This document shows, piece by piece, positions 2,677-5,473 of a stretch of 5,473 bases of DNA. The stretch's first letter is position 1. Each line of letters starts with the position of its first letter. The position numbers were made by a program, and so were the translations under genes. Origin of the DNA: a virus (lineage: Duplodnaviria; Heunggongvirae; Uroviricota; Caudoviricetes). A model generated the notes under the pieces. The model was not told where the DNA came from, did not search any database, and was given only the letters and a program-made list of their open reading frames with translations. The stretch lies in the IMG/VR virus record IMGVR_UViG_2778261058_000013, one strand, 5' to 3'.

Positions 2677-2759
2677 GGTGTAAGACACAATGTAAAATAC
2701 AAGTGTCTTACACGTCAAGCCTTCAAAATAATTTTTTTTCGTGTATATTGTCTTACACC
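2677..2759. promoter_or_regulatory. Divergent promoter region with three copies of a 12-bp operator-like motif (core TGTCTTACAC)
   Basis: GGTGTAAGACAC at 2677..2688 (inverted) and GTGTCTTACACG at 2703..2714 form a palindrome with a 14-bp spacer; a third copy TTGTCTTACACC lies at 2748..2759. On the plus strand a putative -35 TTCAAA (2722..2727) and -10 TATATT (2744..2749) are 16 bp apart; on the minus strand a putative -35 TTGACG (2718..2713) is followed by TACATT. A T8 run sits at 2732..2739. Confidence 0.5.
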
Positions 2760-3016: not shown

Positions 3017-3214
3017 ATGACTGACAAATCATTAAAGAAATTATCCTCATCCAGGAAAAAACAACGCAAAAATGCGGTAAGCGAACAAGAACAGGAAAGA
3101 TTCGCACCTTGTTCGTTTGCTCTTGAGAAATTCCTTAAAGAGTACAGGCGCACAAAAATGGGATCGCATGCCTGGAAAACATCGCAGCATGGCGATACTA
3201 AAGAGCAGGAATAG
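3017..3214 (+). CDS. Hypothetical small basic protein (65 aa)
   Basis: ORF-track ORF; ATG 3017 with a weak AGGT 7 nt upstream; lysine/arginine-rich N-terminus; same strand as and immediately downstream of the 2780..2959 gene. Confidence 0.4.
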   Translation: MTDKSLKKLSSSRKKQRKNAVSEQEQERFAPCSFALEKFLKEYRRTKMGSHAWKTSQHGDTKEQE

Positions 3215-3317
3215 CCCACCAGCAAGCCAGCACACTGATCACATTGCCCACCAGCCGCAAATGTGGCATTGTTGGCTATGCTCATGCGTTGGGGATAACG
3301 TGTAGCTTGTGTCGAGG

Positions 3318-3346
3318 GGCCACCGTAGCGGGTGGCCTTTGTTTTG
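3318..3346 (+). terminator. Rho-independent terminator for the plus-strand small-gene pair
   Basis: Perfect 7-bp stem GGCCACC (3318..3324) / GGTGGCC (3331..3337) with 6-nt loop GTAGCG, followed by TTTGTTTTG. Confidence 0.5.
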
Positions 3347-3362
3347 CCTGTTATCCGGCAAT

Positions 3363-3392
3363 TGTGGCGCTTCGCCACACGGTTGATATAAT
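3363..3392 (+). promoter_or_regulatory. Candidate promoter: perfect palindrome next to a consensus -10 hexamer
   Basis: 7-bp inverted repeat TGTGGCG (3363..3369) / CGCCACA (3373..3379) with loop CTT, followed by consensus TATAAT at 3387..3392; weak -35 TTGTGG at 3362..3367 with a 19-bp spacer. Confidence 0.3.
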
Positions 3393-3441
3393 TCCCCTGC
3401 ACTGATCCATTTTTTTCGCAGCAGGTTAATTGTTCGCAAGG

Positions 3442-3466
3442 GCGCTCCGGCAACGGGGCGCTTTTT
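3442..3466 (+). terminator. Rho-independent terminator-like hairpin on the plus strand
   Basis: Stem GCGCTCC (3442..3448) / GGGGCGC (3455..3461), seven pairs including one G-U wobble in RNA, loop GGCAAC, followed by TTTTTGTT. The minus strand has no U-tract after the stem. Confidence 0.45.
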
Positions 3467-3496
3467 GTTATGTTCATCGCGTTACGCCTCACACCA

Positions 3497-3703
3497 TTAC
3501 GCAGCCGTTCCGCGCGCTTCTTCCTCGCGCTCTTTCAGCCAGGCCAGCACTTCATCTTCATACCAGCCAACACGGCGCAGACCGATTTTGAAGCCTTTCG
3601 GGAATTTTCCGGCGTTGATCATGTCCTGTAGCGAACTGTCTGCCTTGATGCGCAGAATATTTTTTACTTCCTGACGGGTAAGAATTTTTCTGATTACTTC
3701 CAT
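3497..3703 (-). CDS. alpA: AlpA/Vis-family phage transcriptional regulator (excisionase-like helix-turn-helix protein)
   Basis: ORF-track ORF; ATG 3703..3701 preceded by GAGGT with an 8-nt spacer; translation MEVIRKILTRQEVKNILRIKADSSLQDMINAGKFPKGFKIGLRRVGWYEDEVLAWLKEREEEARGTAA has the size (68 aa) and pattern of the AlpA family, and the gene sits in the expected position beside the integrase. Confidence 0.85.
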   Translation of the reverse strand: MEVIRKILTRQEVKNILRIKADSSLQDMINAGKFPKGFKIGLRRVGWYEDEVLAWLKEREEEARGTAA

Positions 3704-3767
3704 CGTGTTTTACCTCGTTAATACGGCGTATTCCGGTGATAAATACGGTAAAACAGGGCAGGGCGGG

Positions 3768-3810
3768 AAAAACAGTACTCACCGTTTTAAAACGGTACTC
3801 ACTGTTTTTT
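3768..3810. promoter_or_regulatory. Two tandem 20-bp near-palindromic repeats upstream of alpA (candidate regulator-binding sites)
   Basis: AAAACAGTACTCACCGTTTT (3769..3788) and AAAACGGTACTCACTGTTTT (3789..3808), 18/20 identical; each unit has partial dyad symmetry (AAAACNGT...ACNGTTTT). A possible degenerate third copy lies near 3741..3760. Confidence 0.4.
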
Positions 3811-3835
3811 ATCTCATTGATTACGCTTTCTTTTT

Positions 3836-3868
3836 GCAAAAAAATAGCGACCGCAAGGGGCCGCTATT
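3836..3868 (-). terminator. Rho-independent terminator after the 80-aa ORF and integrase transcription unit
   Basis: Stem AATAGCG (3843..3849) / CGCTATT (3862..3868) with a GC-rich interior; on the minus strand the stem is followed by a U7 tract (A-run 3838..3844 on plus); begins 5 nt past the stop at 3873. Confidence 0.55.
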
Positions 3869-3872
3869 GTGA

Positions 3873-4115
3873 TTACCGTTTCCACTTCTTAGGTCGCCCA
3901 CCACATTTAAGGCTGGTGGGCCTCAGCACCTTGTCGATGCTTTCAGCCAGATTTTTCGATGCGCCACGCGAGCGTAAAAAACTGACTACCTCGTGTTTTG
4001 TGGGGGCTGTTGATTTGTCTTCCGGATCGTATGTTGACCAGAATTCACGATTTGCCATTAACGCCAGTTGCAGCCCTTCGCCGCAAGCAGGGGATACCTT
4101 TTCATTGAAAAACAC
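3873..4115 (-). CDS. Hypothetical small protein (80 aa) with a basic GRPKKWKR C-terminus, between the integrase and alpA
   Basis: ORF-track ORF with a GTG start at 4115..4113 preceded by a consensus AAGGAG (4129..4124) and an 8-nt spacer; an alternative internal ATG gives MANREFWSTYDPEDK. Translation ends ...LKCGGRPKKWKR. Confidence 0.5.
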   Translation of the reverse strand: MFFNEKVSPACGEGLQLALMANREFWSTYDPEDKSTAPTKHEVVSFLRSRGASKNLAESIDKVLRPTSLKCGGRPKKWKR

Positions 4116-4171
4116 CTGGATAGCTCCTTGAATTTCATGATTTGGGTGACTCCTCTCTGTATTGGGTGGGT

Positions 4172-4210
4172 TGTGGCGATTATACGATGGTTTAGCATGG
4201 TTTGCATCGC
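4172..4210 (-). promoter_or_regulatory. Candidate sigma70 promoter for the 80-aa ORF
   Basis: Consensus TATAAT on the minus strand (plus 4184..4179) with a weak -35 ATGCAA 17 bp upstream; lies in the 116-bp gap between the integrase stop and the ORF's ribosome-binding site. Confidence 0.3.
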
Positions 4211-4231
4211 TTTTACTGGTTTTTTGTACAG

Positions 4232-5473
4232 TTACACGGCACGGATACCCCTTTTACCACTGGCTATGGTCACTCCGGTAGCTGCGGCCTCTACAAATTC
4301 CCCCCACCAGCGCATAAGCACCACGCGCTTTTCCAGGTAGTTACTTCTGTTATATGCCCGCCTTACCTCGTTCGTGTCCACGTGTGCGAGTGCGGCCTCG
4401 ATTACGTCCGGCTCGAATCCTTCCTCGTTCGCTGCTGTACTGAATATGGCGCGTAATCCGTGAGACACCAGCACACCAGCGTATCCCATCCGGCGCAATG
4501 CAGCGTTAGCGGTCTGGCTGCTCATTGGCAGCATTGGATTTTTAAGGCTGGGAAAAACATGTTCCCTGTGTGCGCTGATTGGCTTCATGGTTTCCAGTAC
4601 AGCCATAGCCTGACCGCAAAGGGGGATCACGTGGTCACGGCGCATCTTCATGCGTCCGGCTGGAATCGTCCATGTTTCGGCATCGAGATCTATTTCTTCC
4701 CAGCGTGCGGCGGCTGCTTCGGCTGGGCGTGCTACGGTCAGCAGTTGCCACTCAATCAGCAATCTGGTTTGCCGTTCTATGCTGGCGACCGATAAATCGT
4801 GCATTAGCTGCGGTAGCTGTTCCGGTCGGATGGTTGGCATGTGCTTTTTGGTGGGTGAGGGGAATGCCTTGCGGACGTTCGCGGCGGTGTTGATGTCAAT
4901 CAGCCCACTGTTGGCAGCAAAATCCATCACTTCATTGATGCGTTGTAAAACGCGTTTCAGGGTTTCCAGGTTGCCGCGTGCTTTAATGGGGGTGAGTATC
5001 TCAACAAAGCGGCGAGCTGTGAGGGTATCTATTGGCGTGTTTCCGATGTACGGGAATACGTATTTTTCCAGGGATCGCCAGATATCCTTAATCGTGTTGT
5101 AAGCCAGATTCTGGCCTTTTTTCATCTCGTACCAGTCCGAGGCAACTTTTTCGAACGTGTTGCCCTTTTTCCGACTCTCTGCTTCACGTTTCCGGCGTTC
5201 GTGGTCCTGTGGGTCAACTCCCTTCGCTATGAGTGACCTGTATTCATTCCGTCGTTCTCTGGCATCGGACAGGGAAACATCATTCAGCGATCCGAGGCTG
5301 ATGATAGTCCGTTTTTTATCTGCCGGGCGGTAGTACGTAAAACGCCAGATTTTTGATCCGGAGGGTTTCACCAGAAGAAATAATCCTCCACCATCCTGCA
5401 GGGTGTATTCCTTTTCCCCTGGTCGTGCGTTTTTGATCTCCGTAATGGTTAGTGGGGTGGTTTTTCGTGCCAT
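4232..5473 (-). CDS. int: Site-specific tyrosine recombinase, P4-type phage integrase (413 aa, complete)
   Basis: ORF-track ORF; ATG at the window edge (5473..5471). The N-terminus MARKTTPLTITEIKNARPGEKEYTLQDGGGLFLLVKPSGSKIWRFTYY is typical of the arm-binding domain of P4-like integrases; the C-terminal domain has the HxLR motif (VSHGLRAIF) and a catalytic-Tyr context (RRAYNRSNYLEKR). Confidence 0.95.
   Translation of the reverse strand: MARKTTPLTITEIKNARPGEKEYTLQDGGGLFLLVKPSGSKIWRFTYYRPADKKRTIISLGSLNDVSLSDARERRNEYRSLIAKGVDPQDHERRKREAESRKKGNTFEKVASDWYEMKKGQNLAYNTIKDIWRSLEKYVFPYIGNTPIDTLTARRFVEILTPIKARGNLETLKRVLQRINEVMDFAANSGLIDINTAANVRKAFPSPTKKHMPTIRPEQLPQLMHDLSVASIERQTRLLIEWQLLTVARPAEAAAARWEEIDLDAETWTIPAGRMKMRRDHVIPLCGQAMAVLETMKPISAHREHVFPSLKNPMLPMSSQTANAALRRMGYAGVLVSHGLRAIFSTAANEEGFEPDVIEAALAHVDTNEVRRAYNRSNYLEKRVVLMRWWGEFVEAAATGVTIASGKRGIRAV

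Follow-up and report, generated by a model that had tools for sequence, protein, structure and literature searches.

The window, i.e. the whole stretch of 5473 bp that was analysed, carries six genes on the minus strand and only two on the plus strand. The minus-strand genes are a tyrosine integrase gene (int, 4232-5473), an 80-aa ORF (3873-4115), an AlpA-family gene (alpA, 3497-3703; Pfam Phage_AlpA, E = 4.5e-8), a gene for an Icd-like protein (2374-2580; NCBIfam NF033153, 71 bits), a DUF4222 gene (1398-1712; Pfam DUF4222) and the 5' part of a DUF927 primase gene (1-1401; Pfam DUF927). The Icd-like gene is the first gene of an operon and is followed by small ORFs; the order Icd-like, small ORFs, DUF4222, DUF927 primase is also found in the E. 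coli loci L001-L009. On the plus strand, a 59-aa ORF (2780-2959) encodes a YlcI/YnfO-family protein that is predicted to be a ribbon-helix-helix (RHH) repressor. Downstream of it lies a 65-aa ORF (3017-3214; PHROG 21027, function unknown), which is probably co-transcribed with the RHH gene.

What kind of element do these genes belong to? For a Gram-negative PICI we looked for co-oriented int, alpA and primase genes, a size of about 10-20 kb, a specific integration site and the absence of genes for virion structure or lysis. The window has its best E. coli match, at 97.9% identity, in a 21.8-kb locus (L001) whose island adjoins tRNA-Pro and yejM. This island also encodes SSB, ProQ/FinO and PerC-family proteins, DUF1441 and a small terminase subunit, while no capsid, tail or lysis genes are annotated in it. 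Thus int, alpA and the DUF927 primase gene are co-oriented on the minus strand, integration is site-specific and virion and lysis genes are lacking. Judged by this gene content and order, the window belongs to a PICI-like phage satellite of E. coli. The organisation of int, alpA and primase is as described for Gram-negative PICIs (PMC6092414, PMC10111431), and elements related to this island are induced and packaged by a helper phage (PMC6092414, PMC11773190).

The region between the Icd-like gene and the RHH gene contains three similar short sites, which are predicted operators: O1 (2677-2688, GGTGTAAGACAC), O2 (2703-2714, GTGTCTTACACG) and O3 (2748-2759, TTGTCTTACACC). O1 is inverted with respect to O2 and O3 and is separated from O2 by a 14-bp spacer (2689-2702). 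The original prediction had described three copies of a motif here, and their positions proved correct. The exact core common to all three is 10 bp, TGTCTTACAC (2678-2687 on the minus strand, 2704-2713 and 2749-2758 on the plus strand), and it is unique to them, for no fourth match was found in the window with one mismatch allowed. The same three are also the sole exact sites in the 21.8-kb L001 locus. In a repeat search, O1/O2 and O1/O3 were found as 11-nt inverted pairs with 100% complementarity and O2/O3 as a direct pair. Each site is itself a pseudo-palindrome, GTGT-nnn-ACAC. The chance expectation for the core in the window is 0.17 matches, and three matches were reached in 0 of 200 dinucleotide-preserving shuffles.

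The sites were then placed relative to promoters, which were predicted by a sigma-70 consensus scan; each of the two matches the consensus at 9 of 12 positions, and the quality of -35 and -10 varies among loci. The predicted promoter of the Icd-like/DUF4222/primase operon lies on the minus strand at 2689-2718 (-35 TTGACG, 2718-2713; 18-nt spacer; -10 TACATT, 2694-2689). That of the RHH gene lies on the plus strand at 2722-2749 (-35 TTCAAA, 2722-2727, weak; 16-nt spacer; -10 TATATT, 2744-2749), and a Shine-Dalgarno sequence AAGGAG (2768-2773, plus) stands 6 nt before the ATG, with GGa kept in the class consensus sequences described below. O2 is situated within the spacer of the minus-strand promoter with a 2-nt overlap with the -35, O1 abuts the -10 of the same promoter and spans its predicted start, and O3 reaches over the predicted start of the plus-strand promoter and shares 2 nt with the end of its -10. 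The earlier claim that the motif overlaps both divergent promoters therefore holds at the consensus level of the promoter scan. A higher-scoring promoter-like match on the plus strand, TTAACA-17-TAAAAT (2670-2698), is not conserved across classes and was thus treated as probably fortuitous.

Are these sites peculiar to the window? To answer this question, a set of about 130 loci was collected with the 59-aa protein as query, comprising nine annotated E. coli loci, 43 from other species and 80 from IMG/VR; the genera include Escherichia, Xenorhabdus, Yersinia, Pectobacterium, Serratia, Enterobacter, Kluyvera, Hafnia and others. Of 5426 complete E. coli genomes, 1327 have a relative of the intergenic region itself (72-98% identity), and in 371 of these the query is covered to at least 80%. 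In almost every locus, a motif-blind repeat finder located three sites upstream of the divergent gene. Counted from its start codon, they lie at about 76 and 31 bp for O2 and O3 and at about 101 or about 112 bp, depending on the class, for O1. The three-site arrangement is thus kept across genera. Two loci (L040, L046) encode the protein and lack the sites, since their upstream regions are rearranged.

The sites share the frame GTG-N5-CAC, often widened to GGTG...CACC. Their centres vary between loci, and they do so in concert across all three copies of one locus, which defines at least 14 classes. The window belongs to the class GTGTCTTACAC; further classes are GTGTGGCCCAC, GTGAAATACAC, GTGTCAGCCAC, GTGTCGGACAC, GTGTTGAACAC, GTGGACTCCAC, GTGAATCGCAC, the GTGTTCCAC type and GTGCTTAGCAC. 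Within a class, identity is 85-96% in the sites and only 56-73% in the spacers between them. Such concerted change of three copies, together with purifying selection within each class, is expected of binding sites for one co-evolving factor. All class consensus sequences keep aGGTG.....CAC and, after it, TCAA at O2; at O3, about 31 bp upstream of the ATG, gTATAcTG, the site and CACC are kept. Outside the operators, nothing is conserved except the -35 TCAA beside O2, a T-tract, the -10 TATA(C/T)T abutting O3 and the Shine-Dalgarno sequence; the -35 region of the RHH-gene promoter is merely T-rich across classes. These conserved features are consistent with the repression geometry proposed below.

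The comparison also bears on whether the repeats act as nucleic acid, by an O1/O2 hairpin, a cruciform or an attenuator, or came about by chance or recent duplication with no protein partner. In the window, O1 and O2 do match perfectly as inverted copies over 11 nt, with 14 nt left for the loop. However, only some classes have O1 inverted relative to O2; in classes B, D, E, F, G, H and J the two copies run in the same direction, so that a hairpin is impossible there. The palindrome with its 14-bp spacer, as first described, thus exists in the window and is not a conserved feature. In addition, different genera keep both the third copy and the fixed placement of the sites with respect to the promoter elements, and chance is excluded by the shuffles given above. 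We regard an origin in structure or chance as hardly credible. The distance from O1 to O2 is 25 bp or about 36 bp by class, the longer one being found in classes C/H and in L136 (e.g. L015, L020, L049). Because this shift is one helical turn, the angular phase of the two sites is kept, which hints at a helical-phase requirement between O1 and O2.

Which protein, then, reads the sites? The 59-aa protein follows the site class exactly. For 64 non-redundant class/protein pairs, the mutual information between residue and class peaks at residue 12 (2.29 of 2.62 bits), followed by residue 14 (2.06 bits). Both residues are almost monomorphic inside each class, the residue-12/14 pairs being S/T, A-or-S/K, M/T, K/E, R/D, T/A, K/Q, Q/N, K/H and Q/A, while N7, K9, S10 and R16 are invariant in the 64 pairs. 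The window protein has S12/T14, whereas K12/E14 is found in class D, with GTGTCAGCCAC sites, and R12/D14 in class E, with GTGTCGGACAC sites. Across the family there are 28 distinct residue-12/14 pairs. In a prospective test, four homologues were picked solely for new strands (SQLFT, SLQVS, SQKMS and SQQIV) and their contigs were then examined. All four loci have new, internally concerted triples at the same positions, namely GTGAAACACAC, GGTGAACACCAC, CTGGCACCCAC and GTGAATGCCAC. They occupy the same genomic slot. Genes of the replication operon are found upstream (DUF927 primase in two, Phage_ASH in one); the downstream neighbour is an AlpA, Bro-N, AntA or ORF6N gene. One limit on the covariation should be noticed: with less than 110 bp between the protein and the sites, some of it is due to co-inheritance. 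Given this tight linkage, the argument rests on the triple concerted change, on covariation at the predicted DNA-contact residues and on the shuffling of flanking genes.

It might be supposed that the sites are read by another factor, i.e. AlpA, the Icd-like protein, the 65-aa protein, or a helper-phage or host protein. AlpA is reported as an activator of downstream PICI genes (PMC6092414), and the PHROGs label of the Icd-like family is 'transcriptional repressor'. Against AlpA, the window and L002 share one operator class and have unrelated AlpA proteins, while the window and L004 have nearly the same AlpA and different operators; in 126 classified loci the four AlpA types assort freely with the classes. 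The region upstream of alpA, moreover, has its own, different 20-bp repeats. The versions of the Icd-like protein are more than 90% identical across six classes, A to F. The 65-aa ORF is absent in L002, L005, L006 and L008, all of which have the operator module; it is therefore an accessory gene outside the conserved module, and the earlier suggestion of its product as a binder did not survive the comparison. A host or helper factor cannot account for 14 locus-specific classes that track the strand of the adjacent RHH protein. A reader other than the RHH protein is accordingly very improbable. The original prediction had favoured the 59-aa protein, and it is this protein alone that the site class follows, most sharply at residues 12 and 14. 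The comparison thus supports the operator reading through kept positions, concerted classes, the tie to the 59-aa protein and its predicted fold, and very probably the 59-aa protein binds O1-O3.

The 59-aa protein matches the YlcI/YnfO family model NCBIfam NF041551 at 66.8 bits (cutoff 30; E = 1.2e-18), and the identical RefSeq protein WP_000190552.1 is annotated as YlcI/YnfO family. Pfam, including DUF3950 (PF13132), gave no match up to E = 10, and sequence searches of the PDB returned no relative of known structure. The family is narrow: a search of 1.84 billion representatives yielded 90 clusters at E up to 0.001. No match was obtained by tblastn against 50,697 GenBank phage records, and thus no helper-phage homologue. 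The fold predicted for the protein has a strand at about residues 10-17, a helix at 19-28, a G32-E33-S34 turn and a second helix at 35-58. This agrees with the RHH superfamily (MetJ/Arc/CopG), in which an N-terminal beta-strand, helix A, a turn and helix B follow one another. The G-x-(S/T/N) turn that starts helix B in RHH proteins is present as G32-E33-S34-T35; E33 and S34 do not vary among homologues, and no residue is more frequent than G at position 32. The covariation points to the RHH habit of setting specificity by alternate strand residues, with 12 and 14 variable and R16 invariant. RHH proteins are obligate dimers with a two-stranded antiparallel ribbon and often assemble into higher order on repeated sub-sites. 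The model made here is of a monomer, and three sites per locus would be compatible with such a higher-order assembly. Many RHH operators have tightly tandem sub-sites, whereas the sites here are 25 and 45 bp apart.

In the Arc-operator complex, the side chains of Arc Q9, N11 and R13 contact bases. A profile alignment places residues 12, 14 and 16 of the 59-aa protein onto these three, with a weak hhalign match (probability 10%). By this alignment, the residues that covary with the operators, 12 and 14, are at positions expected to read DNA, and the invariant R16 probably reads the invariant GTG/CAC arms.

Does the operator rule extend to the whole YlcI/YnfO family? K-12 YlcI (DLP12) and YnfO (Qin) belong to the same NCBIfam NF041551, are small and have an RHH-like sequence pattern, which is seen in YlcI itself. 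YlcI, a distant member of the family, differs in having a match to Pfam DUF3950 (72.8 bits) and in lying in a lambdoid prophage; within this cryptic prophage its gene (DLP12, L133 6252-6840) lies directly beside nohD and the cos site. No GTG-N5-CAC triple was found upstream of K-12 ylcI. With this other context and no triple, the rule cannot be extended to the whole family, and the function of K-12 YlcI may differ from that of the satellite subfamily. In the full-text literature that was searched, no function was found for YlcI/YnfO proteins, including K-12 YlcI and YnfO.

We consider it likely that the RHH protein with O1-O3 acts as a double repressor, of the replication operon and of itself, and forms the local switch of the PICI-like satellite. 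The N-terminal beta-ribbon of the protein would recognise the 11-13 bp pseudo-palindromes O1, O2 and O3 in the frame GTG-N5-CAC, with residues 12 and 14 reading the variable centre of the site. Bound at O2, in the spacer and at the -35 edge, and at O1, beside the -10 and over the start, it would block RNA polymerase at the minus-strand promoter and so keep the Icd-like/DUF4222/primase (replication) operon off. Bound at O3, at the -10 edge and the start, it would limit its own synthesis. Binding at the three sites would make the module the satellite's local repressor/operator switch, and this module would exist in many mutually distinct specificity ('immunity') types. We infer repression and not activation, with transcription starts as predicted. 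The RHH protein might instead bind without being a simple double repressor. It might repress the replication operon and activate its own promoter, or the reverse, or it might act mainly after induction and govern copy number as CopG does, instead of maintaining repression in the quiescent island. However, O2 inside the promoter spacer and O1 and O3 over predicted starts are the classic positions of repression, and they are kept in almost all classes, which makes such a departure from double repression unlikely.

The leader of the Icd-like gene contains a further candidate element. A putative cis-antisense RNA of about 80 nt (2580-2661, plus) is predicted to be complementary to the Shine-Dalgarno and start region of the Icd-like gene. 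It would have a 5' stem-loop beside the anti-SD (2582-2613, plus) and a long bipartite terminator-like hairpin with a U-rich tail (2616-2650, plus); the terminator-like structure ends about 16 nt before O1. By RNAalifold on 66 non-redundant loci, the plus strand folds at -22.2 kcal/mol with 20 pairs, and the minus strand at -3.4 kcal/mol with 10 pairs. In these loci, 98.1% of the cells pair and 13 pairs show compensatory changes; none of 500 shuffles reached the observed covariation score, paired fraction or compensatory cell count. In these pairs, G.U cells number 188 and A.C cells 5, and when the pairs are read on the minus strand the paired fraction therefore falls to 84%. The window alone (2580-2662) folds at -35.9 kcal/mol on the plus strand (z = -5.6) and at -22.2 kcal/mol on the minus strand. 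This folding argues that the structure is conserved on the plus strand only, between O1 and the start codon of the Icd-like gene. A possible extended -10, TGgTATGAT (2565-2573, plus; hexamer 2568-2573), lies inside the Icd-like coding sequence, and a TAnnnT hexamer is found at this fixed offset in 65 of the 66 loci, though it codes for different N-termini; it is possible that TGgTATGAT is the -10 of the antisense RNA. When the whole window was scanned against Rfam (E up to 1), no family matched, including C4 and IsrK, and therefore the leader structures are not the known C4, IsrK or CI RNAs. The predicted RNA probably regulates the replication operon as a cis-antisense RNA, directed against the leader, SD and start of this operon. 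It is antisense to the operon, unlike the immunity RNAs P4 CI and P1 C4.

Are there known systems of this design? The P22 immI region has two RHH repressors, Mnt and Arc, divergent promoters Pant and Pmnt, and the sar antisense RNA. The module resembles it in having a small RHH repressor gene divergent from the controlled operon, operators over back-to-back promoters and, as proposed, autoregulation, as well as a short antisense RNA, predicted here, over the region where ribosomes bind the transcript of that operon. The residues predicted to read DNA also align to Arc Q9, N11 and R13. The differences are that no sequence homology is detectable beyond the fold; that P22 has one operator of two half-sites, whereas this module has three separated single sites at intervals of 25 and 45 bp; and that in P22 an antirepressor operon is controlled with two RHH genes, while here replication functions of a satellite are controlled with one. 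Comparable systems are CopG and the antisense RNAII of pMV158, acting on repB, and CopB and CopA of plasmid R1. In pMV158, however, copG is co-transcribed with repB and CopG binds one 13-bp pseudo-symmetric element, whereas here the RHH gene is divergent, the sites are three, the antisense RNA is predicted and the element is an integrated, probably helper-dependent island and not a plasmid. By analogy, the closest parallels would be P22 immI (Mnt/Arc with sar) and pMV158 CopG with RNAII, and the RHH protein together with the predicted antisense RNA would amount to dual control of the CopG/RNAII or Arc-Mnt/sar kind.

Among satellites, the nearest likeness is to Stl (Rpr) of SaPIs and Gram-positive PICIs, where the repressor gene also runs in the direction opposite to the genes for replication and packaging, from which a divergent promoter region separates it. 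Stl differs in being a large HTH repressor that is inactivated by binding helper-phage proteins; the 59-aa protein is predicted to have the RHH and not the HTH fold, and so is not a master repressor of the Stl/Rpr type by this model. The literature on Gram-negative PICIs describes the existence of a repressor as 'unclear', and AlpA as the central and documented inducer (PMC6092414); the stl-str slot is the regulatory slot described there as unfilled (PMC6092414). A zone of Bro and immunity-RNA genes is described in PICIs (PMC10111431). No RHH repressor or such operators were found described for PICIs in the full-text literature that was searched. Two stretches of the chromosome of CFT073, the strain of the model island EcCICFT073, contain only the icd prophage and core genes. 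The mechanism itself, a small autoregulated repressor with operators over divergent promoters, is conventional; the new part appears to be the assignment of a protein family and its sites in Gram-negative PICIs.

A wider reading, which we put forward tentatively as possible and somewhat short of probable, is that Gram-negative PICIs have their missing maintenance or immunity repressor in the RHH protein, which would lock the operon together with the cis-antisense RNA and whose hypervariable recognition strand would define the types that set cross-repression. The RHH protein and the antisense RNA would then hold the replication operon silent as a two-layer lock, cross-repression between satellites, whether co-resident or incoming, would depend on their immunity types, and helper induction through AlpA would need to override the lock. 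If these readings hold, they give a function to an uncharacterised ('y-ome') protein family and a concrete repressor/operator switch to a widespread class of satellites, and satellite-satellite immunity becomes directly testable. They would also provide a natural set of at least 14 orthogonal pairs of small repressor and operator with a readable two-residue code, useful for studies of RHH recognition and as parts for synthetic biology. A gap in satellite biology would possibly be filled, with a clean natural specificity code.

Some further features of these loci should be noticed. A long variant of the protein, with 98-103 aa and an additional C-terminal helical segment, is encoded in L003, L009 and L127-L131. 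It keeps the class A strand SQSLTARI, and its loci have degenerate O1 and O2 (GTGTAAGTAAC, GTGGCTTACAT) and a fourth copy, TGTAAGAC, between O2 and O3. In the window, a non-coding gap of about 280 bp (3215-3496) separates the convergent 65-aa ORF and alpA. It holds two strong terminator-like hairpins on the plus strand (3315-3340 and 3438-3465), which probably insulate the RHH transcript from alpA. Upstream of alpA, at 3769-3808, there are two tandem 20-bp direct repeats, AAAACAGTACTCACCGTTTT and AAAACGGTACTCACTGTTTT, with no relation to the operator motif. No sigma-70-like promoter was found in 3480-4240, and a terminator-like hairpin lies on the minus strand at 3868-3843. The 20-bp repeats may be sites for autoactivation by AlpA or for a helper-encoded activator.

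At the other end of the module, the operon's first gene begins with 18 codons (2527-2580, minus) that read MRNHTTHPQGRDSHNLNK or a close variant, with MLNH... in the window. When the window, L001, L077, L085 and L115 were compared, these 18 codons were seen fused to two different downstream proteins in different islands, either Icd-like (...YIWRF...) or 'ash family' (...AGMKNLLIATAS...). L001 carries about 358 bp extra relative to the window at this point, which looks like a recombination junction directly after the regulatory module.
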